Assembly: GCA_031425655.1 (NCBI GenBank) | Contig: JANPJS010000263.1 | Coordinates: 1-23,666, forward strand | Direction of reading: 5' to 3' | DNA length: 23,666 nt | Origin: Abditibacteriaceae bacterium | GTDB taxonomy: Bacteria; Armatimonadota; Abditibacteriia; Abditibacteriales; Abditibacteriaceae | Part shown: positions 3,778 to 21,355 of the stretch, piece by piece | How the letters are laid out: every line of letters starts with the position of its first letter | Position numbering within the stretch: the stretch's first letter is position 1 | Position numbers and translations under genes: made by a program | Notes under the pieces: generated by a model | The model's input: the letters and a program-made list of their open reading frames with translations, nothing else | Told to the model about the DNA's origin: nothing | Databases searched by the model: none

Positions 3778-3815
3778 TGGGCGCAATCCGCCCAAAGGGC
3801 ACCGGGCGCCCCTAC
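3778..3815 (-). repeat. Double hairpin or GTAG-type REP-like sequence between convergent genes
   Basis: Minus strand reads GTAG-G-GGGCGCC-c-GGTGCCC then TGGGCG-gattg-CGCCCA. The TAG is the kinase stop codon. Confidence 0.35.
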
Positions 3816-5350
3816 TTTGTCGCTTCGCCCATTTGACACGGCAAACGAATTTCCACCAGCAATCCGCCGCTTTCGGCGTTGCGGGCGACGACTTGGCCGC
3901 CGTGTAAATGCACGGCGCGTTCGGTAATGGCAAGGCCCAATCCGACGCCGCCGCTTTGGCGGTCGCGCGCGTCGGCGATGCGATAAAAGGGGCGGAACAA
4001 TTCGCTTAACGATTCTTCGGGCACGCCTTCGCCGTAGTCGCGCACCGCGATGACGGCCCAATCGGTGCCTGTCGCGTCGTGTTCACAAGTCAGGCTGATT
4101 TGCACGGTTGTATCGTCCTTCGTGTAGCGCACGGCGTTACGCACCACGTTTTCAATCGCGCTCCGCAGCAGCGATTCGTTGCCCGAAACCGCACACTCGC
4201 AACTCGATTCCACGCGCACCGCGCACTCGCGGCTGCTGGCTTCAAAGTCGGCATCATCGCCGATTTCCGCGACTAAGCGCGCGATGTCTACGGGCGCGGT
4301 TTGCGTCATTGGCTCGCCGCTTTCCAATCGTGAAATCGTCAGCAGTTGGCCGATCATGAAATTGAGGCGCTCGGCTTCGAGTTCGATGCGATCAAGGTCT
4401 TCAACCGATTCGTCGCCGGCTGTCGTGCGCACCAAACCTAAAGCCACGCTGAGGCGCGCTAAAGGTGAGCGCAATTCGTGCGAAATATCGGCGATGAGGC
4501 GATTTTGCGCTTTCATCAGCGATTGCAGGCGCTCGGCCATTAAATCGAAATCACTGCCCAAGCCGCCTAATTCATCGCGGCGCTTTGTCAGTTTGGCACC
4601 GACGCGCGCCGATAAATCGCCGCGGGCTAAGCGCTGTGCGGCGCCGCGCAACTGCACAATCGGCGTCGTCAGGTTGCGCACCAAGCCGTAGCAGACAAGC
4701 CCTGTGGTTGCGAGCAAGGCCAGCAGGCGCAGTATCTGCGTTTGTGAGTCGGCGAAAAGCCACCACACATACCAGCGAAACGGCGGCCCGCCCGGAGGCC
4801 CGCCCGGAGGCCCGTCCTGTCTCCGCCGGTCGCCGCCGCGCCCTCCACGCGGCCCAAAACGCCCGCCGCTGGTCGTGCCCGCCACGACATAAGTTTTGCC
4901 GGCGAAACTGGCGCGCCGCGCTGCAAGAATGCGCCCTTCAGACGATTCGCGTTCGAGATTACCGCTGCGTATGGCGCGTTGCACCAAGCCTTTCAAAGTC
5001 GCCGCGCTATTGTCTTCCGGTTGAGAAACAGAGGGCGCGGGTCGTTTCAAGGCGCGCCCTTTGTCGTCGAATAGAAAAGTTTGCAATCGCTCGGTGTCGG
5101 TGAGATAAGGTTTTGCGGCGTCCGGCCCGGAACGGCTGAGAAGGGCGGCGGAGGCTTCTAAATAAGCTGTCAGAGCATCGTTGGACGGTGCAAAACGGCG
5201 CTGTGAAGAGCCGTTTTCGCGGTCTCGCCGCTCTTGCATCTGGGTGTGCGCGCGTTCCTGCGTGCTGGCCACCAAAGCCGCGAAAACGATGACGACGAGG
5301 GCCATCGCCATCCAGAACCACAGAAAAATCTTAAGAAACAGGCTTCGCAT
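3812..5350 (-). CDS. Sensor histidine kinase, CpxA-like (TM-periplasmic-TM-HAMP-HisKA-HATPase)
   Basis: MRSLFLKIFLWFW N-terminus, H-box DISHELRSPLARL, N-box ENVVRNAVRY, D.G.GV, FRPFYR..ARDRQSGGVGLGLAI. Confidence 0.95.
   Translation of the reverse strand: MRSLFLKIFLWFWMAMALVVIVFAALVASTQERAHTQMQERRDRENGSSQRRFAPSNDALTAYLEASAALLSRSGPDAAKPYLTDTERLQTFLFDDKGRALKRPAPSVSQPEDNSAATLKGLVQRAIRSGNLERESSEGRILAARRASFAGKTYVVAGTTSGGRFGPRGGRGGDRRRQDGPPGGPPGGPPFRWYVWWLFADSQTQILRLLALLATTGLVCYGLVRNLTTPIVQLRGAAQRLARGDLSARVGAKLTKRRDELGGLGSDFDLMAERLQSLMKAQNRLIADISHELRSPLARLSVALGLVRTTAGDESVEDLDRIELEAERLNFMIGQLLTISRLESGEPMTQTAPVDIARLVAEIGDDADFEASSRECAVRVESSCECAVSGNESLLRSAIENVVRNAVRYTKDDTTVQISLTCEHDATGTDWAVIAVRDYGEGVPEESLSELFRPFYRIADARDRQSGGVGLGLAITERAVHLHGGQVVARNAESGGLLVEIRLPCQMGEATK
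4785..4814. repeat. 12-bp tandem repeat (2.5 copies) encoding GPPGGPPGGP
   Basis: GGCCCGCCCGGA GGCCCGCCCGGA GGCCCG. Confidence 0.8.
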
Positions 5351-5354
5351 GGAG

Positions 5355-6068
5355 TTAAGCTACGGCGTCCTGACGGGTCAGGGCGTAAACGTAGCCCGCC
5401 CCGCGCACCGCTTTGATGCGCTCGGCTTGGCCGACCGAGTGCCCCAGTTTGCGGCGCAGATTGCTGACTAAAGTGTCAATGCTGCGGTCAAAGGGACTCA
5501 GCTTGCGGCCCAGAACGGTGCTGACTAATTCTTCGCGCGTGACAATGCGCCCGGCGTTTTTCAAAAGAAGCGTTAATAAATCGAATTCGGCGCCGGTTAG
5601 CTCGACGATTTCGCCGCCGCGCTGCGCCAGACGCGCACCGAAATCCAATTCCATGTCGCCCACGCGCAGAGTTTCGGGTTCGGAGCCATCCGGCAAGGCC
5701 GCGCTTTTGGTGCGGCGCAGAATGGCACGAATGCGCGCCGTCAGTTCGAGAGGATTGAAAGGCTTGGCTAAGTAATCGTCGGCGCCGGATTCGAGGCCGA
5801 CGATGCGATCCACATCGTCGCCGCGTGCCGTCAGCATCAAAACCGGCGTTTCTAATTCGGCGCGCAAACGCCACAAGACATCGAAGCCGTTCAATTTCGG
5901 CAGCATTACATCCAGCACGATCAGCACGTAGCCGCCGCCGAGCGCCTTTTCGACGCCGCGTTCGCCGTTGTTGGCGGTTTCGATTTCAAAGCCTTCGCGC
6001 GCCAAATAGCGCGTCACCAGCGTGCAAAGCTCCACGTCGTCGTCAATAATTAAGATTCGCTCTGCCAT
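5355..6068 (-). CDS. OmpR-family response regulator, CpxR-like
   Basis: RILIIDDD, LDVMLP, GADDYLAKPF, winged helix SPFDRSID..VSNLRRKL, VRGAGY. Start reassigned to ATG6068, which has GGAG 5 nt upstream. Confidence 0.95.
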   Translation of the reverse strand: MAERILIIDDDVELCTLVTRYLAREGFEIETANNGERGVEKALGGGYVLIVLDVMLPKLNGFDVLWRLRAELETPVLMLTARGDDVDRIVGLESGADDYLAKPFNPLELTARIRAILRRTKSAALPDGSEPETLRVGDMELDFGARLAQRGGEIVELTGAEFDLLTLLLKNAGRIVTREELVSTVLGRKLSPFDRSIDTLVSNLRRKLGHSVGQAERIKAVRGAGYVYALTRQDAVA

Positions 6069-6093
6069 GTTCGCTCCGCTTGTTCCGAAGTCA

Positions 6094-6102
6094 ATTTTAA
6101 CA
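6094..6102 (-). promoter_or_regulatory. Extended -10 for the regulator/kinase operon
   Basis: TG-T-TAAAAT, 25 nt upstream of ATG6068. Confidence 0.5.
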
Positions 6103-6143
6103 AGGCCGCGTTCGCTGCCCTGTGGAGAATTGTCAAGCCGCGC

Positions 6144-6160
6144 TTCACAAAATCTCACAA
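6144..6160 (+). promoter_or_regulatory. Candidate OmpR-family direct-repeat binding box
   Basis: TTCACAAAATCTCACAA, i.e. TCACAA repeated with a 10-bp period in the divergent intergenic region; identical 16-mer at 20348-20363. Confidence 0.6.
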
Positions 6161-6242
6161 TGCGAGCGAGGCTGTGAAGCAACCCCGGCAAGCGGCACGC
6201 TTTCTAAACGGCCATTCAACAAGCGTTGGAAAAGGAAAAATC

Positions 6243-6971
6243 ATGAAAAATCAAAAATGGATCGCCGGCCCTTTGGCGCTGGCGTGCAGTCTGGGAATGG
6301 CCGGATTAGCCGGCGCGCAACCGCCTGCAACGCCCGGCGCGGGCACCAATCCGCCCAATCAGACGGCGGGCGGCAACCTGCGCGCGACTTGGCAAAACAT
6401 GACGCCCGAACAGCGTCAAGCGGCCATCGTGCAGTTCACGGAGCGTCGTTTGCGTAACGATCTGACGCAGGCCGGCTTTGCCGACGCGGCCACGCAAGAC
6501 CCGATTGTCGCTTTCTCCAAAACCATGGAAGCGCTGCGCCGGCCCTTGCGCGAAAAGGCGACCAAACTGCGCGAAGCCGTTGCCAATAAAACTGCGGACG
6601 CCGTCGTAACGCCGCTGATTAGCGATCTGCGTAAAGCAACCGAAGACGCCAAACAGCCACGCGAAGAAGCGTTGAAAGTTTTGGACGGCAAAATCAACTA
6701 CAGCACGAAGCCGCGCCTTCAAGCCTTTTTAATGGTTGGCGGCTTGCTTGGCGATGAGATGGCCTTCGCAGGTGGCGCCGGTGGTTTCGGCGCCGGTGGT
6801 TTCAGCGGTGGCGGTTTTGGCGGACAAGGCGGACGTGGCGGCGCCGGTGGACAAGGCGGAGCCGGGCAGGGCGCAGCCGGGGCCCAGAACGGTCAAGGCG
6901 GCGCCGGTGGCCGTGGTCGCGGACGCGGTGGACGCGGTGGAAACAACGCCGGCAATGCCGCCAACAATTAA
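6243..6971 (+). CDS. Periplasmic Spy/CpxP-like helical protein with Gly/RGG-rich tail
   Basis: ATG6243 with AAGGA RBS; signal peptide ending AGA-Q; MTPEQRQ (LTxxQ-like); helical core; divergent from cpxRA-like genes. Confidence 0.65.
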   Translation: MKNQKWIAGPLALACSLGMAGLAGAQPPATPGAGTNPPNQTAGGNLRATWQNMTPEQRQAAIVQFTERRLRNDLTQAGFADAATQDPIVAFSKTMEALRRPLREKATKLREAVANKTADAVVTPLISDLRKATEDAKQPREEALKVLDGKINYSTKPRLQAFLMVGGLLGDEMAFAGGAGGFGAGGFSGGGFGGQGGRGGAGGQGGAGQGAAGAQNGQGGAGGRGRGRGGRGGNNAGNAANN

Positions 6972-7003: not shown

Positions 7004-7052
7004 CAAAAGCAACGGCCATTTTCGTATTTTGCGAAAATGGCCGTTGCTTTTG
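7004..7052. terminator. Bidirectional intrinsic terminator
   Basis: Perfect 21-bp inverted repeat CAAAAGCAACGGCCATTTTCG with a 7-nt loop, between convergent genes. Confidence 0.85.
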
Positions 7053-7058
7053 CAGCAT

Positions 7059-10000
7059 TCAATTCCCCTTCAGCGTCAACGGGAAATTCTGGCCTCTGGA
7101 AAACGGAACGGGCCATTGTTCGCGCCCACGATATTGCTTGGCCAGTTCGGGCACGCGCTCTTCGGTATACGCGAAAAGTTGGCTGACTTTGACGATGCTG
7201 TCGGTTCCCGCCGCTTTACCGCCCAAGCCTTCGAGCAACGCATAAGTGAGGATGCCGTGACCCAGCGATTTGACTTCGTTCGCGTATTGTTGGCCGGTTG
7301 AAGCCGTGAGGACGTGGATGCCTTGCGCTCTTGCTAACATCGCTAAAGCTTGTTGCTCATCGGAGCTGCCACGCGTTGCGCCCGCGACGGCTGCCCCACT
7401 TTTGCAGGCGTCGTAGATGAGAATAATCTTGCGCGCCGGGATTTTTGAAACTAATTCGTCAATGGTTTTGCCGCTGAGACCGAACTGGCGCACGCGCTCT
7501 TTCATTACCATCTGGCGCATTTCAGCCGGCAGAAAATAGAAGCTTTGCGCCGAGGCCGGATCGTCGTCTTTGGCGGCGCTGTCGGCAGCGGTTTCGCCAT
7601 GCCCGGCTAAATAAATCACGGCCACATCTTCGGGTTTGGCGTTTTGCGCGATTTGTTTCAGCGCGTTTTGAATCGCTTCGCCGGTTGCGGCTTCATCGAG
7701 CAAACTCGTGACATTGATGCGCGAAAACAAGCCTTTATTTGCCCTTTGCGCTTGGAAAAACTGCGCCAAAGCCTCGGCGTCGGGCCGCGCGTAACTCAGT
7801 TCCATCGTAGCGTCGCGGTATTGGTTAATGCCGACGCAAACGACGTGCAACGCCGGTTTTTGCGCGGCTGCTGCGAATTGCAATTTTACTTCGTCAGGCC
7901 GGCTTTCCAGATCGGTTTGCGAATACGCGACGGTGCGCAGCACGTTATCGCCCGGCGCCAGCGCGACGTTGAATTTCTGCGCGAAATTATTGTTTTGCGC
8001 CGCTTCCACGACAATGCCACGCAAATTAGGCGGGCCACCGACCAATCTGCCGTTGTGATAAAGGCGAATCGCTTTGACGCCGTTCGGCGCGCTCGCTTCG
8101 ACACTGACTTCGATTTGCTCGGTTTTGGCTGCGCCTGCGGTTGGCGAAGTGATTTTTACAACCGGCGGCGCGCCTTGCGATACGGCTTGCGCCAGCGATG
8201 TCATCGGCGCATTTTCATTCGGCGCCTGCGTGAGAAGTCGCATTAAACCGGGACGATAAAATCGCTCGGCGAACTGGTCGAGCGCGTAAATCTGTGTGCC
8301 GCGCGCGAACGAGACGTTTTTCAGGGCGCCGGGCGAGCCGTCAAATTGGCCATCGGGCGTGTAGGCCAGCCAATCATCTCCCGGCAAGCGCACGAAGCGA
8401 AATAATTCTTTGCCGTTGTCCAGTCGCCACACGCGCAACTGTTTATAACCGTCTTCGCTGATGCCCAGTCCGCGCGTCACATCCAGTCCGACATCGTGTT
8501 GCATCACGTCGAATTCTTTGAAACCTTCGCTGCCGGGAATCGGCAATTCTTTCAGCGTTTTGCCGTCAGCATCCAAAATCACGAGATGCGATCCTGCCAC
8601 ATAGATTTTCTGGCTATCCGGCGAAAACGCCAGACGCACGAACAAGCCTTTGCCCAAATATTGCGACTTGGGGGCGCCGGTGGCGGCTTCAAAAAGCCGA
8701 ATGACATTGAAACCCGCTGCCGCGATGGTTTTCCCATCAGGTGAAACCGCCACGCGCAGCGGCGAGCCGGGTGCCTCGGCTTTGGGGTTGAGCGTGGATT
8801 TGGTTTTCCACAGTTGTTTTCCGCTATCGGTGTCGTGAGCGCGCAAAAATTCGCCGTTGCAGGAATAAAGCGTGCGATTGTCTGGCCCGAAGGCGGCGCC
8901 GATGAAAGTCCCACGAAAAGTCGAGCCGATATTCGGCGCATCCATGCCTTGCAGCGGCGGCAAAGGCTTGAAATCGGGGGCGCCGAAAACCATCTGTTTT
9001 TCTCTGGAACTCGCCGCGACGCGCGAAGCATCATCGCTCCACACGGCAAAGCCGAGGCTGCCGAAATCCTGCGCCGTGCCTTTCCTGGTGCCAATCACGC
9101 GCGGCGCGCTGGGGTTTTTGGCGTCCCAGAACCACAGCGTATCTTTCCAATCGTTGCCGAGGATGCGTCGCCCGTCGGGGCTAATGGCAGCCGCGCTAAT
9201 TGGTTTTTCGTTGCCGCGAAAAAGCTGCGTGCCGCCGCCTGCCAGATCGCGCAGTTCAAACCGGCCATCGTCGGCGGCCAGCAGCATTTGACCGGTGCGC
9301 GTGCTGCCGACCACGCGCGTCCACGGCAACTCGCTCGAAATCGTGCGCGGCGTGCCATTTTGCCACAACGTGACGGCATCGCTGCCGCCACCAGAGGCAA
9401 TTTTCTGCGAAAGCGGCGAAAACGCGATGTCTTTAATGTCGCCGCTTTGCGGGTTTTTCCAAGTTGATGTGACTTTTCCGGTTTGCAGATCGCGCGTTAG
9501 CAAAGCGCCGCTTGCCGTGCCATAAAGCAGCGTTTTGCCGCCCTGCGAAAAGCGCGCGACTTGCAAGGTCGTGCCGGGAATTGGCGCTAAAATCTGCGGT
9601 GCCGCTGTGCCATTGACCGTGAAAATCAGCGTTTTGCCATCGTCGGAGAGCGCCAGAATTTTGGAATTGTCGTTGTTCCAATCGAGGCCGCTCACGCCGG
9701 ATTTCAGCGGCCAGGCCCATTCCTTGAGCACCTTGCCGGCGGGGTCGTAAACGCGCAGCGGCGTTTTGCTGCCGCCATCCACAAACGCCGCGAGCGATTT
9801 TCCATCGCGGGAAACTTGCAGCGATTGGACGTTATAGCCGTGTGTTCGCAGCGCGGCCTGCCAACTGACAAGAGCTTTTTCGCTTTGCGCGTCGTAAATG
9901 CGAATTTTGCCGTCGCTGTAAGTGCCGTCGCTACCCGTCACGGCCAAATTTCCATCGGCCAAAACGCAGATTTTCGAGCCGCCGAAGCGCATTTTCGTGA

Positions 10001-10376
10001 GCACGGGTGCCGCTGTGCTTTGCGGGTCAATGCAATAAATGCGGCCCACGAAATCGCCGGCCCACAGCACGCTGCCATCGCGTGAAAACGCCAGTTGCTT
10101 GATGGATTTCTCAAAATTCCAAGTCTGAACCGCGCGTCCACTGCTCACTTCCCACAGCTTCACGCTTTCATCGAAGGCGGCGCTGGCCACGAATTTTTCG
10201 TCGGGCGACCAGCGCAAACTGTCAATCCATTTGGTGTGCCCGACCGGCAAAACAAGGCGCACCGGGTCGCCGGTTGGCCGTGCATCTTCGATAACAATTT
10301 GTTTGGAGGCCGGTTCGGCAGCAAGAATCGGCAAAACCAGCAGAGCTGTCAGGCTGAGAAGTATTGGGTTTCGCAT
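7059..10376 (-). CDS. Secreted WD40-repeat + Ig-like + caspase (peptidase C14) protein A
   Basis: Signal peptide; WD40 repeats (GHTKWIDSLRWSPDEKFVASAAFDESVKLWE); dyad YLAGHG and YDACKSG; GHGILTYALLEGL; EQWP. Confidence 0.92.
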   Translation of the reverse strand: MRNPILLSLTALLVLPILAAEPASKQIVIEDARPTGDPVRLVLPVGHTKWIDSLRWSPDEKFVASAAFDESVKLWEVSSGRAVQTWNFEKSIKQLAFSRDGSVLWAGDFVGRIYCIDPQSTAAPVLTKMRFGGSKICVLADGNLAVTGSDGTYSDGKIRIYDAQSEKALVSWQAALRTHGYNVQSLQVSRDGKSLAAFVDGGSKTPLRVYDPAGKVLKEWAWPLKSGVSGLDWNNDNSKILALSDDGKTLIFTVNGTAAPQILAPIPGTTLQVARFSQGGKTLLYGTASGALLTRDLQTGKVTSTWKNPQSGDIKDIAFSPLSQKIASGGGSDAVTLWQNGTPRTISSELPWTRVVGSTRTGQMLLAADDGRFELRDLAGGGTQLFRGNEKPISAAAISPDGRRILGNDWKDTLWFWDAKNPSAPRVIGTRKGTAQDFGSLGFAVWSDDASRVAASSREKQMVFGAPDFKPLPPLQGMDAPNIGSTFRGTFIGAAFGPDNRTLYSCNGEFLRAHDTDSGKQLWKTKSTLNPKAEAPGSPLRVAVSPDGKTIAAAGFNVIRLFEAATGAPKSQYLGKGLFVRLAFSPDSQKIYVAGSHLVILDADGKTLKELPIPGSEGFKEFDVMQHDVGLDVTRGLGISEDGYKQLRVWRLDNGKELFRFVRLPGDDWLAYTPDGQFDGSPGALKNVSFARGTQIYALDQFAERFYRPGLMRLLTQAPNENAPMTSLAQAVSQGAPPVVKITSPTAGAAKTEQIEVSVEASAPNGVKAIRLYHNGRLVGGPPNLRGIVVEAAQNNNFAQKFNVALAPGDNVLRTVAYSQTDLESRPDEVKLQFAAAAQKPALHVVCVGINQYRDATMELSYARPDAEALAQFFQAQRANKGLFSRINVTSLLDEAATGEAIQNALKQIAQNAKPEDVAVIYLAGHGETAADSAAKDDDPASAQSFYFLPAEMRQMVMKERVRQFGLSGKTIDELVSKIPARKIILIYDACKSGAAVAGATRGSSDEQQALAMLARAQGIHVLTASTGQQYANEVKSLGHGILTYALLEGLGGKAAGTDSIVKVSQLFAYTEERVPELAKQYRGREQWPVPFSRGQNFPLTLKGN

Positions 10377-10382
10377 AATGCT

Positions 10383-13300
10383 CTATTTTCGGACAATCGG
10401 GAAATTCTGGCCTTTGCCGAAGGTGACAGGCCATTGCTCACGCCCGCGAAATTCTTTAGCTAAAGCCGGCACGCGATCATCGGTGTAAGCGAACAAACCG
10501 TTGACTTTCACCAGCGAATCGCTGCCTGCCGCTTTGCCGCCCAAACCTTCAAGCAGAGCATAAGTAAGAATGCCGTGACCAAGTGCCTTGACTTCGCCCG
10601 CATATTGCTGCGCAGTCGAAGCTGTCAGCACGAAAATGCCTTGCGCGCGGGCCAGTTGGGCTAAAGCCTGCTGCTCATCGCCAGCGCCGCGCGTAGCATT
10701 GTCAACTGCCGCGCCGCTTTTGCAAGCGTCATAAACCAAAACCACTTTGCGCGCCGGGATTTTCGAGATAAGCGCGTTGATTTCCGCGCCGGACAAGCCG
10801 AATTCGCGCACGCGCTTTTTCATAACCATCTGGCGCATTTCGTAAGGTAAAAAGTAAAAGTTTTGCGGTGCGTTCGGGTCGTCGTCGCCGGCTTCATCGG
10901 GCGCGGCGGTTTCGCCGTGTCCGGCCATGTAAAGGAAAACCACGTCTTCGGGCTTGGCTTGCGCGGCCACGTCTGCGAGTGCTTTTTTGATGGCTTCGCC
11001 GGTCGCGGCTTCGTCCATTAGCGCCGTGACGTTGCTGCTCGAAAACAGCGTGGTGTTTTTCGCATCTTTGAAAAATTGCACGAGCGATTCGGCGTCGGGA
11101 CGCGCGTAAGTCAGGTTCATGGTCGCATCGCGGTAAGCGTTGATTCCAATTGCGACAACGTGCAGAGCCGGTTTTTGCGTCGCGCTGGCGAAACTGATTC
11201 TGACTTCGTCCGACTTGCTTTCCAGATCGGTTTGCGAATAAGCGACGGCGCGCAAAGCGTTCTCGCCGGGCGCTAATAAAACACTGAATTTCTGCGTGAG
11301 CGCGCCGTTTATCGGAGCGGCAGGCACAGCAGCGGCCTCGACGACGATACCGCGCAACTGGCCCGGCCCGCCGACCAAGCGTCCGTTTTGATAAAGTCGA
11401 ATCGCTTTGATGCCGCCGTTGTTTTGCGCTGTCGCTTGCACCGTGACTTCGATTTGCGCGCCGGGCGCCGCGCCGGTTTGCGGACTTGTGATTTTCACGA
11501 CGGGTGGCGCGCCCTGGGCTAAAAGCGCACCGGCGCTGGCTTCGGGCGTTGCGGCTCCGGCGTTGTCGCCTTCAGCGCCCTGCATAATCTGGCGCACCAA
11601 TCCGGGACAATAAAAGCGTTCGGCGAACTGTTCCAGCGCGTAAGTTTTGCCGTTTTGCTCAAAGGTCACGCGCTCGATGCCGCCGGGCGAGCCGTCGAAC
11701 AGGCCGTCGGGCGTGAAGGCCATCCAATCGCCGTTTTCCATCGCCAAATAAGTGAGTAGGGTTTTACCGCTTTGCAATTCGCGCAGCGCGATGCTGCCGT
11801 TGTTTTGAACGATGAAACTGAGTTTTTTTGCTGCATCTGAGCCGGTTACTTCGCGTCCGCTTTGCACGTCCCAAACTTGCGTGATGCGTCCTTGCGGTGC
11901 TTGGTTGAAAACCCATTTGTTGTCGCCCGAAAATTCAAAAGCGTAGTTTCGCTTGCCCAGTTCGCGGACAAATATGCCGTTTTCCACATCATACAAACGC
12001 AGAACCGGGCGCGATCTTTCCTGCCCTTCGTAGATGAATGGCTCCGTCTCGGCGCTGCTCAACAGAAAGCGGCCATCGGCACTGAAAATGGTCTGGCCCA
12101 ATGTTGACAGGTAACCTTGTGCGTCGGGTTTGGCGAAGCTCCATTGCTTCACCGGGCGCCGTGCGGCGATGTCCCAGACACGCGCCATGCCACCGTCGTC
12201 GAGGCTGATGGCGCGCTGGCCGTCATTGCTCCACATCACGTTGACGATGTTTTTCCCAGCGCCTTCCATGTTGGCAATGGGCAGGGCGGCATCCAGATTC
12301 CACAAATGCAAAATCATGTCATCGCCGCCACCTAAAAACTGCCGCCCATCGGGACTAAAAGCCAGAGCATGAATGCCATGGGTAAAGCCCTTGTATTCGC
12401 GCACCGGCTGGTCGGAAGTTGTATCGAACAGCCAGAGGCGTGAGGCATGGTCAAGATCGCCCGCGCTGACTAAAACGCGGCGGCTGTCACGGCTCCACGC
12501 CACGGCGTTGGGCGTCCCCGGCACTTGCCAGCGGCGCAAGCGGCGACCTGTCGCAATGTCCGAGAGTTGCAGGATATTGGTGCCGTCGTCCGTAGGCGAA
12601 TAGGAATCGGTGCGCGCCAGCATCGAGCGTCCATCCGGGCTGATGAGCAGCTTTTTAATGAGAAGGGAATAGCCCCGAAACGCGCGCACGCTGCGGCGCG
12701 CAGCATTGGAAAGGTCGGCAATGCTCCACATTTGCGCGATTTTATCAAAGCCCGCCGAAACCAAAGAAGCGTTGTCATTGCTGAAAGAAAGGCCAAAAAC
12801 GCTATCTTTATGGCCGCGCCACGACGCGACAAGACGCTTTGTCGCCACTTCCCACACGCGCAAATCGCCCATATCCGAGCCGGTAGCGACCATCTTGCCG
12901 TCCGGCGAAAGCGCGCCCGCAGTGCAAATGAAGTCGGGCGCATCAAAGCGCGCGGTTTCGCGGGCCGCGTCCACATCCCAAATCAGCACGTTGTCTGGAA
13001 CACTCCCAACCAGAAATTTCCCGTCGCGGCGCAGTGCCAGTGGGTCGAATTCGATTTTGCGCGATGTGAGCAGCTTGCCCGTTTCGATATCGTAGCCAAT
13101 TATGCGGCCATCAACAGCGGCACCGATGGCGCGCTGGCCGTCGGCGCTCCAGGCCACAGCGCGCGTTGTAGATAGAGCGGTTGTGGATTTGGCCGGATCG
13201 GTTTCCATGACGCGCATTTGCTCGCCGCTTTCCAAGTTCCACAAACGCACTTTCCCGTCTTCGCAACCTGAAAGCGCCTGCCTACCATCGGCGCTAAAAG

Positions 13301-13703
13301 CGATGGATTTTATGCCGTAGGGATGCTTCATTTCGCGCAGCACTCGGCCCGATTCCACATCCCACAGATAAAGAATGCCGGCATCGTTGCAACCGACCAG
13401 AGCGCGTTTTCCATCGGGACTAAAAGCCGCTGACGAAGCGTAGCTTTTCAGCGGCAGCACCCGCACTTCGCGGCCCGACGCCACATCCCAAAGCCGCGCC
13501 GCGTAATCGCCGCCGGCTGTCAGCATCAAATCGCCGCGCGGCGACAGCACCGCCGCAAACAAACCGCCGGTGTGGCCAAGCGGCGGCACCATGCGCAGCG
13601 CGCCTTCGCTGTCCGCCGCGCTGCCGGCCTCGACTACGATTTGTTTGCTGGGCTGCGCGAAAACCGGCAATGCAAGCGCGAGGAGGAGAAATAGAAGACG
13701 CAT
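10383..13703 (-). CDS. Secreted WD40-repeat + Ig-like + caspase (peptidase C14) protein B
   Basis: Signal peptide ending VFA-Q; canonical GH...WD repeats; dyad YMAGHG and YDACKSG; C-terminal ~400 aa closely parallels protein A. Confidence 0.92.
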   Translation of the reverse strand: MRLLFLLLALALPVFAQPSKQIVVEAGSAADSEGALRMVPPLGHTGGLFAAVLSPRGDLMLTAGGDYAARLWDVASGREVRVLPLKSYASSAAFSPDGKRALVGCNDAGILYLWDVESGRVLREMKHPYGIKSIAFSADGRQALSGCEDGKVRLWNLESGEQMRVMETDPAKSTTALSTTRAVAWSADGQRAIGAAVDGRIIGYDIETGKLLTSRKIEFDPLALRRDGKFLVGSVPDNVLIWDVDAARETARFDAPDFICTAGALSPDGKMVATGSDMGDLRVWEVATKRLVASWRGHKDSVFGLSFSNDNASLVSAGFDKIAQMWSIADLSNAARRSVRAFRGYSLLIKKLLISPDGRSMLARTDSYSPTDDGTNILQLSDIATGRRLRRWQVPGTPNAVAWSRDSRRVLVSAGDLDHASRLWLFDTTSDQPVREYKGFTHGIHALAFSPDGRQFLGGGDDMILHLWNLDAALPIANMEGAGKNIVNVMWSNDGQRAISLDDGGMARVWDIAARRPVKQWSFAKPDAQGYLSTLGQTIFSADGRFLLSSAETEPFIYEGQERSRPVLRLYDVENGIFVRELGKRNYAFEFSGDNKWVFNQAPQGRITQVWDVQSGREVTGSDAAKKLSFIVQNNGSIALRELQSGKTLLTYLAMENGDWMAFTPDGLFDGSPGGIERVTFEQNGKTYALEQFAERFYCPGLVRQIMQGAEGDNAGAATPEASAGALLAQGAPPVVKITSPQTGAAPGAQIEVTVQATAQNNGGIKAIRLYQNGRLVGGPGQLRGIVVEAAAVPAAPINGALTQKFSVLLAPGENALRAVAYSQTDLESKSDEVRISFASATQKPALHVVAIGINAYRDATMNLTYARPDAESLVQFFKDAKNTTLFSSSNVTALMDEAATGEAIKKALADVAAQAKPEDVVFLYMAGHGETAAPDEAGDDDPNAPQNFYFLPYEMRQMVMKKRVREFGLSGAEINALISKIPARKVVLVYDACKSGAAVDNATRGAGDEQQALAQLARAQGIFVLTASTAQQYAGEVKALGHGILTYALLEGLGGKAAGSDSLVKVNGLFAYTDDRVPALAKEFRGREQWPVTFGKGQNFPIVRK

Positions 13704-13715
13704 AATGGGAGGGCT

Positions 13716-13871
13716 TTTAACACCATCCCCGGCCCTTCCCCTTGAAACGGCTAAGGGGAAGGGGGTTGTGGCCCATCTGTTCCGAAAAAATTAATAGTTT
13801 TTCGGGACAAAAGTGGCGGTTCTCCCTTCCCCTTAGCCGTTTCAAGGGGAAGGGCCGGGGATGGGGTTAAA
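13716..13871. repeat. Inverted doublet of BoxC-like palindromes (REPIN/MITE-like)
   Basis: Perfect 41-bp inverted repeat 13723-13763 / 13824-13864, extendable with one mismatch. Each arm holds an 11-bp hairpin CCCTTCCCCTT..AAGGGGAAGGG. TTAA on both flanks. Confidence 0.9.
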
Positions 13872-16004
13872 TCAATCTTTAACCGTCAAAAGCACGATGT
13901 CGGTGGCCCAGCCTTCGGTGGTAATCGGCTGATTGCGCGCATCGGGCGGCAACACTTCGATGCCGCGTGCGCCGTTGTTGAGTTCGCGCTTCAACTGTGC
14001 GAGCAGCGCGGTGGCGATGTCGGAGCCGTTGCCCTGCAACGTGGCGATTTCGCCGCCTGCCGCTTCCAAGACTTCGAGCCGCAGCGGCGCTTCGGTGACG
14101 ATAGCCTTAATGGCTTCGCCACCGGCAGGGCCGGCTACACGCAAACGATATAAATTCGGCGCCGGCAAGCTGGTAGTTTCGCCGGCGCGCAGCTTGTTAT
14201 TCGCCGCGTATTTGTTGGGAAAAAGCACCGTCACTTTGCCCGCCGGGTCAACGTCCACCAGATACAAGTAACAGTCGCGCTCGGCGCGGGCCGTGAACGA
14301 AACCGTATCGTTGATCTTGATGGTATCGAAATCTTTGCCGTTGACCTGCAAATCAACGTGCATGGCGGCTTTGGGATTTTCCATCGCCACCAATTGATTG
14401 ACCGTATAAAGATTCTCTAAAACGCGCCCGATTTTCGGAAACACGTCGTCCACATCGGCGCCCGTAATCGCCGGAAGCTGCTGTTGGTTACGATATACGT
14501 TGAGGCGAAGGCCGTCGCCTGCTCCGCCGCGCTGCGAAAACTCCAGTTCAGCCTCGTGTGGCGCCTTCGCGTCAACAACCTGCACGAAATCGAGAGCGCC
14601 GATTTTCTGCGAGAGCGCGGCTTTGCTGTTGCCGGGAGCCTCGCCAAGCAATGCCACGCGCAGCTTTTTCGAGGCGACGAAGTGAAAGGTTTCGCGCAAT
14701 TTGTCGCCGGCGGCAAAAGTGCCTTTGACGATGCGCGCTGTGCCGCTGGTGCCGTTAGCCGTGAGAACGCGCAAAGCCGAGCCGCCAGCGTTTTCAAAAA
14801 TGCTGCCCGGCGAAAGCTCCAAACCGGCGCTAACTTGAATCTGCGCGGTATCGCCCGCGATGGACAGCACGCTGGCGTTGGCACCGGCGATTTGCGCTGC
14901 GACTGGTTGCGTAACCGGCGGCGCAACGACAACGGGCGGCGTAACCGACGTTGGTGGTTTGACTGCGGTCGGTGGCGTCGTTGCGGGCGCTGTGGTTGGC
15001 GGTGTGGGTGAAGCCAACAAAGCATTCAGGGAAGCGGCTAACGCGGCGACTGTGCTGCCATCGAGCGTGGTGCGTTTGAGCGCGGCGCCTTCGAGTTGCG
15101 GCACTTGCTCGAACTTTTGTTTTTGCAGCCACAGGCTCAGGTCTTTATGAATGTCGGCGTAGCTGGCATCCGGCTTTTCAAGGGCCGTGGCTAAGAAGGC
15201 AAACGTCAGCGCGCCCATAAAAGGATTGATGACCTGGTCGCCGCAATACTTGCCTTTGGTTTTGATTTGGTCGAGATAAGCCTTGATTTTGGCTTCTTCG
15301 TCGGGCAGCAAAAACGGATAATCCGACGACGTTTGATCGGAGCGGCAACCGGTGAGCAGAACCGGAACGGCGCCGTCGGGCGCCAAGTCGTCGGCGCGGG
15401 CGTTGGCGGCGCCGATGGGGAATTTGAAATCGCGCGGATTGATGCCCAAATCTTCAGCGTCAATGGCGCGCGGGATGCCGCCGCCGCGCAAACCTGTGCC
15501 GCTGTGACATGAATCGAGCATGATAAAGGCGTTTTTGGTTTTGAGACGGCCTACCCAATCGCCCAAGTTGTCGTCGGTGATATACGATTCGATGGTGCCG
15601 CCGGCATCGTAAGGCACAAGGGCTTCGTCTTTGCCGTCGGCTTCGTCGCCGTTGCGGTCGGGCAGCGAAGTGCCGTGCCCGGAATAATAAAACATCACGA
15701 AATCGCCCGGCCCGGCCTTGTTAATCAGATGGTCGCGGAACGCCTGCTCAATGCCGGCGCGCGACGATTGCGCTTTTTCCAGCGAGCGCACGTTTTCCGG
15801 CTTGAAGCCGTAAATGTCTGTCAGCACGGTGCGCATTTCTTTGAGATCGTTGACCGGGCCGCTCAGCCATTTATCGCGCGGCGATTTTTGCATCTCGCTC
15901 ACGCCGACCAAAAGCGCGTATTTTTCGGCGTGCGCCGGCTGCGCCACGCCGCTCAAAACCATCGTGCCGCCTATGAGCGCGACCTTCGTAATCAAAGTTT
16001 TCAT
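13872..16004 (-). CDS. Secreted caspase (peptidase C14) + Pro/Thr linker + DUF4384 protein C
   Basis: Signal peptide ending AHA-E; KYALLVGV, LSGPVND, FYYSGHG, DGKDEALVPYD, LDSCHSG; C-terminal DCYLYLVDVDPAGKVTVLFPN..GPAGGEAIKAI typical of DUF4384; GGAG RBS. Confidence 0.9.
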   Translation of the reverse strand: MKTLITKVALIGGTMVLSGVAQPAHAEKYALLVGVSEMQKSPRDKWLSGPVNDLKEMRTVLTDIYGFKPENVRSLEKAQSSRAGIEQAFRDHLINKAGPGDFVMFYYSGHGTSLPDRNGDEADGKDEALVPYDAGGTIESYITDDNLGDWVGRLKTKNAFIMLDSCHSGTGLRGGGIPRAIDAEDLGINPRDFKFPIGAANARADDLAPDGAVPVLLTGCRSDQTSSDYPFLLPDEEAKIKAYLDQIKTKGKYCGDQVINPFMGALTFAFLATALEKPDASYADIHKDLSLWLQKQKFEQVPQLEGAALKRTTLDGSTVAALAASLNALLASPTPPTTAPATTPPTAVKPPTSVTPPVVVAPPVTQPVAAQIAGANASVLSIAGDTAQIQVSAGLELSPGSIFENAGGSALRVLTANGTSGTARIVKGTFAAGDKLRETFHFVASKKLRVALLGEAPGNSKAALSQKIGALDFVQVVDAKAPHEAELEFSQRGGAGDGLRLNVYRNQQQLPAITGADVDDVFPKIGRVLENLYTVNQLVAMENPKAAMHVDLQVNGKDFDTIKINDTVSFTARAERDCYLYLVDVDPAGKVTVLFPNKYAANNKLRAGETTSLPAPNLYRLRVAGPAGGEAIKAIVTEAPLRLEVLEAAGGEIATLQGNGSDIATALLAQLKRELNNGARGIEVLPPDARNQPITTEGWATDIVLLTVKD

Positions 16005-16063
16005 ATACCGTTCTCCATTCCAATTACGGCCCGTTTACCAAAGAAAATGCCCATTATTTGCAC

Positions 16064-16101
16064 AAAACGCGGCTCACTCCGATAGGGAGGGAGCCGCGTT
16101 T
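16064..16101 (-). terminator. Intrinsic terminator after the oxidoreductase gene
   Basis: AAAACGCGGCTC ... GAGCCGCGTTTT with inner CTCC/GGAG pairing; separates the caspase genes from upstream genes. Confidence 0.75.
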
Positions 16102-16132
16102 TATTGCGTTGCCGGATTGAACGGGCGCGCTA

Positions 16133-17287
16133 TTAAAATGTTCCCGAAAATTCCAGCGATTTGCCCTCGGAATCTTTCTTGAACGTCGAGTTTTGAATGC
16201 GCTCCTGCAGCTTTTGATAATAAAGCTCATCGTCGAAGGGCAGGTCAACCCAGTTGTCCGTCCACGACGAGAGCAGCATGGCGTTGGCCAGCGTTACGCC
16301 GTTGATGCCTTCCTGACCGCGCGCCAAAAGCGGCACGCCGTCGCGGATGGCGGCCACAAAGTTTTTGGTGATGCCTTTGTGGTCTTCGCCGCTTTTGGTG
16401 GGAATTTCGATTTTCCACGTTTCGGGCTTCTCGAAGCCGCCTTTTGCGGTTTTTGTCCATTCGGAAACCGGCACGCGCGTCTGCCAGAAGGTTAATTTGC
16501 CTTCCGTCCACAGCAATTTGCCGCGATCTCCGACGATTTCCAGAGAATTGGTGCCCGGCACCTCGCCGGTCGCCGTGATGAAAGTCCCTGTTGCGCCGTT
16601 GGGATATTCGACGAAAGCCGTCACGTCGTCTTCGACTTCGATGTTGTGATATTTGCCGAAGCCGCAGGAAGCGCGAACGCGCGAAGGCATTCCACAAATC
16701 CACTGCCACAAATCGAGGTTGTGCGGGCTTTGATTGAGCAAAACGCCGCCGCCCTCGCCTTCCCACGTCGCGCGCCAGCCGCCCGAATCGTAATAGGCTT
16801 GCGAGCGAAACCAGTCGGTGATGACGTAGTGCGTGCGCTTGATTTCACCTAATTCGCCGCTGTGAACCAGTTCGTGCAGCTTTTGGTGCGCGCCGTGCGT
16901 GCGCTGATTGAACATGATGCCGAAAATCTTGCCGCTTTGCTCGGCGACTTCGTTCAATTCCTTCACTTGCTTGGTGTAAACGCCGGCGGGCTTCTCTACC
17001 AGCGCATGAATGCCGCCTTTAAGCGCGGCAATGGCCAGCGGCGGATGCAGGTAATGCGGCGTAGCGATAATCACGGCGTCCACGGTGCCCGATTGCAGCA
17101 GCGCGGTGGGCGAATCGAAGATTTGCACGTTGCCCTCGAAGCGCGTCTGCGCCCAATCGAGCGCAGCGGGCACAGCATCCGCGACAGCCACCAATTTGGC
17201 GCCGGGAATCTCGTTGCCATACAAATACTGCGCATGATGGCGGCCCATGCCGCCGATGCCGAGAACGCCGAAACGAACGTCTTTCAT
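16133..17287 (-). CDS. Gfo/Idh/MocA family oxidoreductase
   Basis: GVLGIGGMG, DAVIIATPHYLH, LVEKP, GWRATW.GEGGGVLLNQSPHNLD; AGGAG RBS. Confidence 0.95.
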   Translation of the reverse strand: MKDVRFGVLGIGGMGRHHAQYLYGNEIPGAKLVAVADAVPAALDWAQTRFEGNVQIFDSPTALLQSGTVDAVIIATPHYLHPPLAIAALKGGIHALVEKPAGVYTKQVKELNEVAEQSGKIFGIMFNQRTHGAHQKLHELVHSGELGEIKRTHYVITDWFRSQAYYDSGGWRATWEGEGGGVLLNQSPHNLDLWQWICGMPSRVRASCGFGKYHNIEVEDDVTAFVEYPNGATGTFITATGEVPGTNSLEIVGDRGKLLWTEGKLTFWQTRVPVSEWTKTAKGGFEKPETWKIEIPTKSGEDHKGITKNFVAAIRDGVPLLARGQEGINGVTLANAMLLSSWTDNWVDLPFDDELYYQKLQERIQNSTFKKDSEGKSLEFSGTF

Positions 17288-17366
17288 AAAAAATGCTCCT
17301 GTGAAATGCTCTGTTAAAGGATGCCCCGCACGCCGCCGCGCGGCAACCGGCGGTTTGGCGCGAACC

Positions 17367-19082
17367 TCACTTTTCCTGAACGATTTTCAGCACTTGATCC
17401 GCGCTGACGTTCAGCTTTTCGCTGCGCTGGCCGTTCGGCCACTGCACTTCTACGCGGTCAATGCGCGAGGCGGCGCCCAGCCCGAAAGTCAGGCGTGGGT
17501 CGTTTTGCGAGAGGTAGCCCGATGCGCTTCGCACTTCGGCGAATTGGCGCGTTTGGCCGATGGTGATGCTGACACGGGCACCGATGCCGTCGCGGTTGTC
17601 TTTGCTGCCCACGCAGCGCACGCCCAGCCAGTGATTGCGGTTGCCGCCCTCGTTGCGCAGCAAAGCCGCCGGGCCGTTCAGAGGCGTCATCAACATATCC
17701 AAATCGCCGTCGTTGTCGTAATCGGCGACGGCCAAGCCGCGACCGACGCGCGGTTTCACGAAGTCTGCGCCGGCGGCACGCGAAGCGTCGTTGAACGTGC
17801 CGTTTGCGGCGTTTTGATACAACAAAGCCGGCTGTGCGAACGACAAATCCTTGCGCGCCGCCGCGATGTTGTCGGCGACGTGGCCGTTGCTCACGATGAT
17901 GTCTTTCCAACCGTCAAGGTCAACATCCGCGAAGGTCGCGCCGAAGCCGACAAACGGCATACTGGGCGGCCCGATGCGCGAGGCGACCGTGACATCGGTG
18001 AACAAGCCTTTGCCTTCGTTGCGCCACAATTCGTTGGGCAGATCGGAGTAGTTGGCGGCGACAATGTCGGGGCTTCCGTCGTTGTCATAATCGGCCATGT
18101 CGGTGCCCATGCCGGCCATCGCACGCCCGTTTTCGCTGAGGGCCACGCCCGCTAAAAACGCCACATCCGTGAAAGTGCCGTCGCCTTTGTTTTCAAAAAG
18201 CGAGTTCGCGCGGCCATCGTTGGCCACGAAGAAATCAATTTTGCCGTCGCTGTTGAAATCGCCCCAGACCACGCCCAAATTTTTGCCGGCCACTTGTTCC
18301 ACGCCCGCCGCTTTGGTTACGTCGCTAAATGTGCCGTCGCGGTTGTTGCGGTAAAGGCGCCCGCTTTCGCCCTTAAATTGCGTGGGCGGGCAATAGGAAT
18401 AAACGCCCGCGCCAATCGCGCAGCGCGGGTCTTCGCCCACCTTATAATGGCAATAGTGCCCGACGTAAAGATCAACCCATCCGTCGTTGTCGTAATCGGC
18501 GAAAGCGGCGCTGGTGCTCCATCCCTTACTTGCGCCCAGCCGCGCTTTAGCCGAGACATCCGCGAAAGTGCCGTCGCCGTTGTTGCGATAAAGCAGGTTG
18601 CGCCCATAGCAGGTCACCAATAAATCAACCCAGCCGTCGTTGTCTACGTCGGCGGCGCAAACGCCCTGTCCGTAGCCTTTTCCCGCCACGCCCGCTTGCT
18701 TCGTGACATCGCTGAATTTGCCGTTGCGATTGTTGCGATAAAGCCGGTTGCCGCCTTGTCCGAAGCCCGAACTGCCCGGCAAAACTCCGTTTTGGACAAG
18801 GTAAAAATCCATCCAGCCGTCGTTGTCGTAATCGAACCAGCAGACGCCGGAGCCGGTGGTTTCCAAGAAATTATATTTGCCGCGTGCGCCGTTGTTTTGA
18901 CGAAAATCGAGGCCCGAAACCGCCGTCACGTCGCGGAAACGCAGTTTGAGCGGCGCAACAGCGGCTTTTTGCGGTTGAACAACAGTTGTTTGCGCTGTTT
19001 TTTGCTGCTGATTGCATCCGGCGAGCGCAAAAGCCAGCACAGTTATCGCGCAAAAGCGGCGTTTGACGGTGCGGCGTTTCAT
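17367..19082 (-). CDS. CRTAC1-family lipoprotein (FG-GAP/VCBS repeats + ASPIC/UnbV)
   Basis: Lipobox LAGC; repeated DYDNDG..D and LYRNN.DGTF.DV; C-terminal NRDGIGARV..GYLSQ...LTFGLG...EVQWPNG. Confidence 0.92.
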   Translation of the reverse strand: MKRRTVKRRFCAITVLAFALAGCNQQQKTAQTTVVQPQKAAVAPLKLRFRDVTAVSGLDFRQNNGARGKYNFLETTGSGVCWFDYDNDGWMDFYLVQNGVLPGSSGFGQGGNRLYRNNRNGKFSDVTKQAGVAGKGYGQGVCAADVDNDGWVDLLVTCYGRNLLYRNNGDGTFADVSAKARLGASKGWSTSAAFADYDNDGWVDLYVGHYCHYKVGEDPRCAIGAGVYSYCPPTQFKGESGRLYRNNRDGTFSDVTKAAGVEQVAGKNLGVVWGDFNSDGKIDFFVANDGRANSLFENKGDGTFTDVAFLAGVALSENGRAMAGMGTDMADYDNDGSPDIVAANYSDLPNELWRNEGKGLFTDVTVASRIGPPSMPFVGFGATFADVDLDGWKDIIVSNGHVADNIAAARKDLSFAQPALLYQNAANGTFNDASRAAGADFVKPRVGRGLAVADYDNDGDLDMLMTPLNGPAALLRNEGGNRNHWLGVRCVGSKDNRDGIGARVSITIGQTRQFAEVRSASGYLSQNDPRLTFGLGAASRIDRVEVQWPNGQRSEKLNVSADQVLKIVQEK

Positions 19083-20287
19083 GGCGCTCTCGTCTCCGCT
19101 GCGCCGAGTTTGGCCAGCGCCGAGCGCGCGGCCTGATGCTTCGGGTCAAGTTCGAGAGTGGCTTCGTATTGCGCGATGGCTTTCTCTTTATTGCCCGCCG
19201 ACGCATACAAATCGCCTAATTGGCGATGCAAATCCGCATCGCGCGGGCGCATTTTCGATTGCGTCGTCAGGTGGCGCACGCGATCTGCGAAGGCGATTTC
19301 ACTTTGCAAAACCTGTAACTGGGCTTTGGCTTCCTCGGCGCGTCCGGCGCGCTGATAGGCTTTGGCTAAGTTGGCGCGCACTTCGATGTCGCCGCGATTA
19401 GAAAGCAGGGCGTTTTCCAGATGTTCGACGGCTGCTTCGCTGCGTCCGGCGCGCAAGTCGAGAATGCCTAAAATGGCGTGGGCCGCGCCGTGTTGCGGGT
19501 TGGCAGCGAGGGCTTGCTCGGCTAAATCGCGCGCTTGTTTTAAATCGTCGGAGACGCCGCTTTGCATTTTGGCGCGGCTGAGAATCGTGAGAGCGTCCGG
19601 GTTCGAGGGCGCGATGCTTAATGCGCCCCGGCAGGCCGCTTCCATGTCTGCCGTCTGGTTCAAATCGGAAGAAATGTCCGCTAAAAGCAGCCATGCCGGC
19701 AAAAGCTGCGGCTCCAGTTTCACGGCGCGGCGCAATTCGGGAAGCGCGACTTCGGCGGGCGCGGTTCGCATCAACAGTTGAGCGCGAATGAAAGGCACGC
19801 GCCCCGATGATTTATCGGCGGCAGCGGCGCGGTCGAGTAGTTGACTTGCGCGCTTTAAACGGCCTCGTTTGAGTTCGAGTTGGGCTAAAGCGCACAAAGT
19901 GACCGCATTATCAGGCGCCAGCGCCACGGCTTTTTCATAGGCTGCGGAGGCGGCGCGCGTTTGCCCTTGCAGCGTTTCTAAATCGCCCAAAGAAAGCCAC
20001 GCCTGCGGATCATAAGGCGCCAGACGGCAGCCGTCCTGCATCAGGCGCCGCGCATCATCGGCGCGCTGCAATTTCAGGTAGTAAGTGCCAAGCTGATAGC
20101 GCAGTTCAGCTTGATGAGGCGCCGCCGCGAGGCTTTGCTCCATCGTGGCGACAGCTTGTAAATCGCGCTGCGCGGCTTCGCTGACGGGGGCGGGCACGCT
20201 CAATTTCGCACGCAGCGTCCAAGCCATCGCCAAAGCAATCAGGCCGATGGCCACTATTTTTACCAAGCGTTTGGGAATGGGAATCAT
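19079..20287 (-). CDS. Membrane-anchored TPR protein
   Basis: N-terminal hydrophobic segment and multiple TPR units (A...Y..A..L.P); ATGA overlap with the CRTAC1 gene. Start ATG20287 preferred over GTG20329 because TACACT lies between them. Confidence 0.85.
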   Translation of the reverse strand: MIPIPKRLVKIVAIGLIALAMAWTLRAKLSVPAPVSEAAQRDLQAVATMEQSLAAAPHQAELRYQLGTYYLKLQRADDARRLMQDGCRLAPYDPQAWLSLGDLETLQGQTRAASAAYEKAVALAPDNAVTLCALAQLELKRGRLKRASQLLDRAAAADKSSGRVPFIRAQLLMRTAPAEVALPELRRAVKLEPQLLPAWLLLADISSDLNQTADMEAACRGALSIAPSNPDALTILSRAKMQSGVSDDLKQARDLAEQALAANPQHGAAHAILGILDLRAGRSEAAVEHLENALLSNRGDIEVRANLAKAYQRAGRAEEAKAQLQVLQSEIAFADRVRHLTTQSKMRPRDADLHRQLGDLYASAGNKEKAIAQYEATLELDPKHQAARSALAKLGAAETRAP

Positions 20288-20306
20288 GTCCGGTGTGGAA
20301 GTCGTC

Positions 20307-20312
20307 AGTGTA
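20307..20312 (-). promoter_or_regulatory. Candidate -10 (TACACT) for the TPR-CRTAC1 operon
   Basis: TACACT 19 nt upstream of ATG20287. Confidence 0.45.
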
Positions 20313-20347
20313 GCGAAAAAGAACGTCACGGAAGTAAAGAGAAAGAG

Positions 20348-21159: not shown

Positions 21160-21178
21160 ACCGCAAGCCATGATGAAT

Positions 21179-21214
21179 AAAAGCCCGCGATGTGGAATTC
21201 CATCGCGGGCTTTT
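21179..21214 (+). terminator. Intrinsic terminator 1
   Basis: AAAAGCCCGCGATG ... CATCGCGGGCTTTT. Confidence 0.85.
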
Positions 21215-21314
21215 GCGTGCCTGCGCGGTTGAAACCGTAAACTGCCCGCGTGAGCAACGGTCGCAAAATAACGCGAAAGGTGAGAAATCGTGTTTAGGTT
21301 GTCCTCATGTCGGT

Positions 21315-21355
21315 TATAATCTTTTCAACTTATTGGAATTTAAGGAGTTGGTTTT
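21315..21355 (+). promoter_or_regulatory. TATAAT -10, leader and RBS of copy 2
   Basis: TATAAT 21315-21320 and TAAGGAG. Confidence 0.8.

Follow-up and report, generated by a model that had tools for sequence, protein, structure and literature searches.

Why do three neighboring genes for caspase-like proteases carry the same short peptide in five places? The question is raised by a stretch of DNA of 23,666 nucleotides (hereafter the window) from an Abditibacteriaceae bacterium (contig JANPJS010000263.1), in which three co-oriented minus-strand genes, termed C, B and A, each encode a signal-peptide-like leader and a Peptidase_C14 domain (signal peptides were assigned by eye). A preliminary description had noted a basic residue followed by GIVVE or QIVVE in these proteins, and had proposed that cleavage after the arginine or lysine exposes a strand that docks into a partner. 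We find that the peptides belong to a broader motif, R/K-x-hydrophobic-x-hydrophobic, which is real, widespread and apparently undescribed in exported bacterial caspase systems. As to mechanism, we infer, tentatively, that the motif is a locus-specific recognition tag, which the likely Arg/Lys-specific C14 proteases would bind and whose internal copies they would probably cut.

Gene C (13872..16004; 710 residues) encodes, in order, a signal peptide, a C14 caspase-like domain, a Pro/Thr linker, a small beta-barrel, an alpha/beta domain and DUF4384. In B (10383..13703; 1106 residues) and A (7059..10376; 1105 residues), the signal peptide is followed by WD40 propellers and an immunoglobulin (Ig)-like domain, which stand ahead of the protease, and there is no DUF4384. 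A and B are paralogues, with identities of 64% in the Ig domain and 73% in the caspase domain; the propellers are only 19% identical, in agreement with the earlier remark that the sequence around the post-signal copies is strongly diverged.

Translation of the minus strand confirmed all five peptides. In B, KQIVVE (residues 20-25; 13629..13646) stands directly after the signal peptide, and RGIVVE (784-789; 11337..11354) occupies a loop of the Ig-like domain. A has KQIVIE after its signal peptide (25-30; 10287..10304) and RGIVVE in an Ig-domain loop (786-791; 8004..8021), and C has RGIEVL in an insert of DUF4384 (680-685; 13950..13967). The claimed fivefold reuse stands in that every copy is real, but because A and B are paralogues the copies represent only three independent contexts (post-signal segment, Ig loop and DUF4384 insert). 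Codons often differ for identical motif residues (five of six between the two Ig-loop copies), so the motif is not a recent DNA copy. The segment after the catalytic cysteine has related features: in C, a linker with Arg173, seven residues past the cysteine (Cys+7), and RAIDAE (179-184; together 15453..15488), and in B and A, a loop with a conserved Arg-Gly (10686..10691 and 7368..7373, respectively), which in B lacks the hydrophobic tail.

Within the 4388 non-overlapping open reading frames (ORFs) of the genome, the pattern [RK][GQ]IV[VI]E has four matches, all in A and B (0-2 in five shuffles), and a wider pattern that also takes in C has 13, five of them in this locus (shuffles, 0-7); both patterns were drawn after the fact. 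Searches of the genome ORFs gave no further convincing carrier of the exact motif.

Structure models, which cover B and C, place the copies in segments of low confidence. The model of B has a mean predicted local distance difference test (pLDDT) score of 87.6, and only four segments fall below 50 (16-30, 369-372, 711-718 and 783-792), of which two hold the motif copies. In the model of C, the copy is coil with a score of about 65, in the insert before the last strand of DUF4384, and is left off that domain with no strand pairing there; the post-cysteine linker likewise begins a region of low confidence. On these models the motif is not an ordinary core strand in either protein; burial as such a strand would have counted against the preliminary description.

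That description had also set conservation in homologues as a test, and 31 of 32 close A/B homologues (≥47% identity) carry the motif. Its strict form occurs 40 times in these 32 proteins (shuffled mean, 0.115), with 29 copies in the Ig loop, eight after the signal peptide and three in a propeller loop. Of the three homologues that have no Ig-loop copy, two have a propeller copy and the third is a partial sequence. The segment that comes after the propeller-loop copy resembles the N-terminal segment, and therefore a single element likely underlies both the Lys-Gln and the Arg-Gly peptides. All eight post-signal copies retain the basic residue. The exact GIVVE form is confined, by sequence comparison, to the close clade, and a subgroup of more distant A/B homologues has RG[LIV]G[IVL] after the leader. 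Many homologues of C have the DUF4384 copy, which one subfamily has lost. A distinct WD40-caspase subfamily (L042 7153-10545, L037, L039, L041 and, in the same genome as the window, G000:C305:3137-6403) has tandem seven-residue units in the Ig loop, two to five in number and each starting with R or K.

The motif extends well beyond this clade. We surveyed 74 caspase-type anchors from 80 genome loci of many phyla (six loci without an anchor were left out), and found 111 copies of a looser motif vs 24 in shuffles. The other ORFs of these loci gave 96 matches in 706 ORFs vs 116 when shuffled. In 47 non-redundant anchors, the motif occurs after the catalytic cysteine (12), near the C-terminus (8 vs 1.6 expected), in the linker (3 vs 1.4) and elsewhere (25 vs 12), with up to five copies per protein. 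Its presence shows no clear split by signal peptide or by DUF4384 fusion, as judged by a crude leader test and a partly circular matrix. Taken over all sets, the sites are the segment after the signal peptide, the Ig loop, a propeller loop, the segment after the catalytic cysteine and the DUF4384 insert.

DUF4384 proteins that lack a protease domain carry the motif as well. From 147 new DUF4384 representatives, 111 have DUF4384 as the first domain ("DUF4384-first"); none of the 111 matched the catalytic-cysteine pattern, and P0379 has a Pfam C14 match (39 of the 147 were Pfam-scanned). Of the 111, 67 have a post-signal copy where 10.6 would be expected, and 78 have an insert copy (expected, 15.6). 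In a negative control with the strict form over the same span of residues, 3 of 506 leader-bearing proteins of the genome were positive, two of them A and B, vs 37 of the 111. An alignment unselected by pattern has its information at the basic residue and after it, and position 1 is basic (R or K) in 79/99 and 91/104 aligned rows. The second residue is Asp in 129 of 194 DUF4384-first copies, followed by Ala, Gln and Asn, and the Lys-Gln copies of A and B are therefore ordinary members. Family-wide, G, D, A, Q, N, S, T, R and M are found there, and the residue differs between DUF4384 inserts that are caspase-fused (G in 15/33) and those that are stand-alone (D in 79/118). The preliminary description's (G/Q)IVVE after R/K holds insofar as conservation is at the basic residue and the positions that follow, but G/Q is not the general second residue. 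A general rule by which Gly marks cleavable and Gln or Asp uncleavable copies was considered and is unsupported, as the second residue changes by locus. P0252-P0390 are exported proteins with DUF4384 in tandem; members of this large family have two or three copies of the motif but lack a protease domain.

The copies also vary in step. In DUF4384-first proteins, the post-signal and insert copies of one protein co-vary (n=59; 0/5000 permutations), and a protein's own second copy is a better match than that of its nearest relative (16.6 vs 13.8; 35 wins, 16 losses; p=0.002). Between non-homologous proteins, Ig loops of WD40-caspases resemble the DUF4384 insert encoded in the same locus (12.3 vs 8.5; p=0.00015) in a set of 13 loci, pruned from 18 by dropping one duplicate and four relatives (L167 and L172 of the L044 clade were kept). 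Ig-loop/insert pairs include RGIVVE/RGIEVL in this locus, and RALVKV/RMLTKV, RRIQEV/RRIIEV, RDFQLV/RDFIMV and RQLVRN/RQLTRE in others; in L237, RG[LI]G[LVI] is common to three different proteins.

The proteases themselves appear suited to cut after such residues. The three domains score 61.8, 60.4 and 80 bits against the Pfam Peptidase_C14 cut-off of 21.4, and structure matches confirm the caspase fold for C (catalytic domain, 15069..15926; vs AtMC4, Z 28.0, rmsd 2.9, 252 aligned). The His-Cys dyad is His110/Cys166 in C and His929/Cys994 in B, where it is invariant in 77 rows, and it is present in A too. Acidic residues at the metacaspase S1 positions are kept: Asp53 and Asp164 of C and Asp870 and Asp992 of B align with AtMC4 and Yca1 (reference positions, TbMCA2 Asp95 and Asp211; numbering as given in PMC4357240). 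From these sequence features A, B and C are likely Arg/Lys-specific, exported C14 proteases, which fits the specificity assumed at the outset. In metacaspases, two strands inserted after the catalytic strand extend the sheet, and an Asp at Cys+7 binds calcium, as that same paper describes (PMC4357240). No such inserted strands are modelled in B or C. C keeps Asp144/Asp145 of the Ca2+ site, and this Asp pair is absent in B. By spacing, Cys+7 of C is Arg, yet in the HMMER alignment that Arg is an insertion that precedes the Asp. A basic residue, Arg or Lys, is found at Cys+7 in 109/110 C-type proteins, and in 22 of the 109 it is followed by both hydrophobic positions, vs a background of 8.4%.

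The motif is thus conserved, recurs at non-homologous positions above chance and lies in predicted disordered segments, as a short linear motif does. A near-invariant basic residue in exposed loops, together with a tail that changes in step across the locus, points to a recognition site of the locus's own proteases. If so, the acidic S1 pocket would take up the basic residue. On the prime side, the hydrophobic residues that follow would form a short paired beta-strand and give each locus an address of its own. Internal Arg-Gly copies (Ig loop, DUF4384 insert and post-cysteine linker) would be cut in maturation or in cross-activation among A, B and C, and the Lys-Gln copies next to the signal peptide, tethered but poor substrates, would be competitors for the same site. 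The signal input would come from the WD40 propellers, which have diverged between A and B.

Several observations weigh against the tag. In the comparison of Ig loops with DUF4384 inserts, the own locus ranked top in only 5/13 loci, L035 and L050 mismatch, and relatives of one clade remain in the set; within caspase-DUF4384 fusions, co-variation was not detected (n=17, p=0.55) and K/R concordance gave p=0.12. No Ig-loop pattern match was found in 7/16 long stretches with DUF4384 (one of the seven, L036, has a visible variant). In 88 distant A/B homologues, the RG form is barely above chance (40 vs a mean of 24 and a maximum of 39). Ordinary operon neighbors are not enriched (19 matches vs 21 shuffled in 121 proteins), and no outside substrate was found. 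The metacaspase specificity-pocket Cys (PMC5756287; TbMCA2 Cys92) is absent, being Pro50 in C, Ala867 in B and Ala in A. Asp as the commonest second residue of DUF4384-first proteins is unlike the small P1' of MALT1, and the post-signal copy has about 1 bit per position before the basic residue. So little information there is unusual for clan CD proteases. Lastly, in three DUF4384 proteins from Deinococcus plasmids, the strand is retained at the two sites while Arg or Lys is missing.

These Arg-less versions are what would be expected if the motif were a docking or assembly strand, which, independent of cleavage, gathers exported proteins into a locus-specific complex by binding other copies, a groove of DUF4384 or the free edge of the caspase sheet. 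We regard this as somewhat unlikely, but it is kept alive by the prime-side information and the frequent Asp after Arg. It would also accommodate the matched copies, two or three per protein, of DUF4384-first proteins without a protease domain, the tandem Ig-loop arrays described above, the metacaspase-type extension of the sheet that the B and C models lack, and the DUF4384 matches in Thermus thermophilus, Deinococcus radiodurans and Thermotoga maritima, which have no C14 match (profile matches alone). On the other hand, outside Deinococcus the first position is nearly always R or K; a search that covered the Deinococcus plasmids found two caspases encoded on one of them, about 210 kb away, so that a supposed absence of caspases from Deinococcus was not upheld; the C model does not put its own copy on DUF4384 as a strand; and A and B have no DUF4384, with the Ig-loop motif still present in 3/13 long stretches that lack the domain. 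The original proposal, in which a cut after R/K frees an N-terminal strand (GIVVE, GIEVL or DLxVE) that docks on a caspase or DUF4384, with the post-signal copies as ready-made mimics of the tethered ligand, would account for the conservation at the basic residue and after it, and for the propeller-loop copy that resembles a duplicated N-terminal segment. The post-signal copies lie few residues past the likely signal cleavage site, where a cut would mainly define a new N-terminus. The caspase-9 and Smac motifs that bind inhibitor of apoptosis proteins are an analogy; a tethered ligand of that type has a fixed first residue with a free amine after cleavage. Here the residue after R/K varies freely among loci, although a pocket that receives a new N-terminus should tolerate few residues at this place, and it is mainly for this reason that we consider the proposal unlikely. 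In addition, a cut between Lys and Gln would likely give a cyclised, blocked N-terminus, a poor fit to a free-amine ligand, and the basic residue is retained even in the post-signal copies.

In a further reading, the motif is the metacaspase post-cysteine strand become a portable, locus-coded ligand, which Ig loops, N-termini or DUF4384 adaptors of macroglobulin-type fold present to turn exported bacterial caspase cascades on or off, each module with its own addressing. Supplied in trans, it would fill the open edge of the sheet in the caspase domain and place its Arg in the acidic calcium site. This is suggested by the motif at Cys+7 of C-type proteins and by the lack of the inserted strands in the B and C models, and we consider it unlikely as well. 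Mere paralogy and chance, with Arg-Gly in exposed loops joined to a common hydrophobic pattern and no shared function, could draw on the fact that four of the five copies are two paralogous pairs, on the post hoc patterns and on the merely mild genome-wide enrichment of a loose RG pattern (86 vs 59-70). The enrichment and co-variation results have already largely refuted it; with the movement of the motif between non-homologous sites, its co-variation within proteins and loci and its conservation through synonymous codon change, it is very improbable.

The closest parallels to the recognition tag are found among known caspase-like proteases. The orthocaspase MaOC1 and the metacaspases (C14B: AtMC4, AtMC9, Yca1 and TbMCA2) share the fold, the His-Cys dyad, the acidic S1 residues and a basic residue in the post-cysteine linker; MaOC1 self-activates after Arg219 (as reported in PMC7475262). 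They differ in that the proteins of this locus are predicted to be exported, are multidomain, number three per locus, lack the specificity-pocket Cys and share one motif among several unrelated loops and partner proteins; the Arg here also lies at or beside the fourth Ca2+ ligand position of metacaspases. MALT1 paracaspase likewise has Arg-Gly in exposed segments and a caspase fold beside an Ig domain (Z 22.8). Its sites, given as S/P-R|G/A (PMC6237847), are defined mainly before the Arg, whereas here the information follows the Arg and the second residue changes by locus. Arg followed by Gly/Ala is present in the three internal copies and absent in the two Lys-Gln copies, and the preceding Ser/Pro is absent from the internal copies, which have Leu, Leu and Ala there. 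PsCaspase of type IV Thoeris, which requires Arg at P1, and PCaspase are also bacterial and caspase-like and are reported to cut after Arg (10.1101/2024.10.24.620036), but they are promiscuous defence effectors that act on cellular proteins, with no matched tag described in the available text of that report, and the proteins of our locus have signal peptides.

Craspase Csx29/Csx30 similarly couples a clan CD protease to a dedicated partner, and one C-terminal group of Csx30 is reported as DUF4384 (10.1101/2022.08.17.504292); the anti-sigma factor DdvA is described as containing a periplasmic CHAT domain (PMC11506125). Both systems use CHAT where this locus uses C14, and Csx30 is cut after Met. 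DUF4384 itself suggests another comparison. The domain of C (13875..14372; 76.2 bits vs the PF14326 cut-off of 27) is predicted to have a macroglobulin-type fold, with the insert before its last strand (complement C5, Z 10.3, rmsd 1.9, 93 aligned; alpha-2-macroglobulin, Z 9.9; moderate values, from a whole-protein structure search). A sequence search of DUF4384 against the PDB gave no match, a search of the ESM Atlas gave DUF4384 clusters only, and a short-protein search gave 2 matches. As in alpha-2-macroglobulin and complement, a macroglobulin-type domain carries a basic-residue loop, and tandem loop copies may recall a bait. Unlike the alpha-2-macroglobulin trap, C has a single such domain (1-3 in the family) and no other macroglobulin domains, and a fold alone shows no function. 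The small barrel of C (residues 374-441; 14682..14885) resembles the N-terminal barrels of F1-ATPase and HerA (Z 9.2-9.7, again moderate values from that search). These barrels form rings in their own proteins, and C-type caspases may, on the model, oligomerise through theirs. Legumain, GPI8 and gingipain were among the folds returned by the structure search, and no evidence was found for sortase- or ligase-like transpeptidation.

The closest named relatives of the locus are in the Armatimonadota, and the gene order of C followed by at least one A-type gene is also present in G266 and G193. One such locus, L031 (G266:C8:46600-59300), has one C-type gene and then fragmented frames that encode three or more A-type caspase domains; it adjoins transposase-like ORFs, and two of its Ig loops have RSIAVE. 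Elsewhere, L036, L045 and L047 have caspase-DUF4384 and WD40-caspase genes beside a papain-like protease, whose leader has Arg-Gly or Arg-Ser directly before the apparent mature domain and is a candidate substrate. In L164 (NC_007765.1, Rhizobium etli p42e; 9842-19627), a DUF4384-OmpA-like protein, a caspase, a trypsin-caspase-DUF4384 fusion, a serpin and a Ser/Thr kinase are encoded in one run.

In the window, B and A are separated by 6 bases, and C and B by an imperfect palindrome of 156 nucleotides (13716..13871), which is separate from the motif. It is a dispersed genome repeat with 104 BLAST pieces across 48 contigs of the same genome, and belongs to a family like miniature inverted-repeat transposable elements or repetitive extragenic palindromes. 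Directly past the stop of A, a perfect 21-bp hairpin (7004..7052) with convergent genes on either side is likely a terminator; a promoter/terminator scan gave results at chance level. No sigma or anti-sigma gene was seen adjoining C, B and A. The remaining genes include a two-component pair divergent from an exported Gly-rich protein (3812-6971; the latter at 6174-6971, with no Pfam match), an FG-GAP/ASPIC-UnbV gene adjoining a TPR gene with a Gfo/Idh/MocA oxidoreductase downstream of both (17367-20329), and three tandem prepilin-type genes (20431-23045), of which the first matches N-methyl and DUF1559; these three have repeated upstream regions and a short palindromic element past each.

Parts of this picture have been described. 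Both DUF4384 and WD40 appear in a list of accessory domains of orthocaspases (PMC7475262). According to another account, DUF4384 is an uncharacterised domain frequently found in protease fusions (10.1101/2022.08.17.504292). A single orthocaspase with biochemical characterisation is named in a 2017 review (PMC5756287). In the literature searched, mostly open-access main texts without supplements, no description of the motif was found. What is new here is the motif in DUF4384 proteins without a protease domain, its post-signal copies, its free second residue, the controlled co-variation and the predicted macroglobulin-type fold of DUF4384. Exported bacterial caspase-like proteases are widespread: 119/301 genomes of this phylum have C14 matches, not all of them exported, as do 46/47 of those positive for DUF4384 (many of these are fusions, and kin are not independent). 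For such systems, a shared, locus-coded motif supplies ready-made reporter peptides, predicted cut sites and a test by specificity swap, and for DUF4384 there is now a predicted fold, with bait or adaptor as its candidate role.

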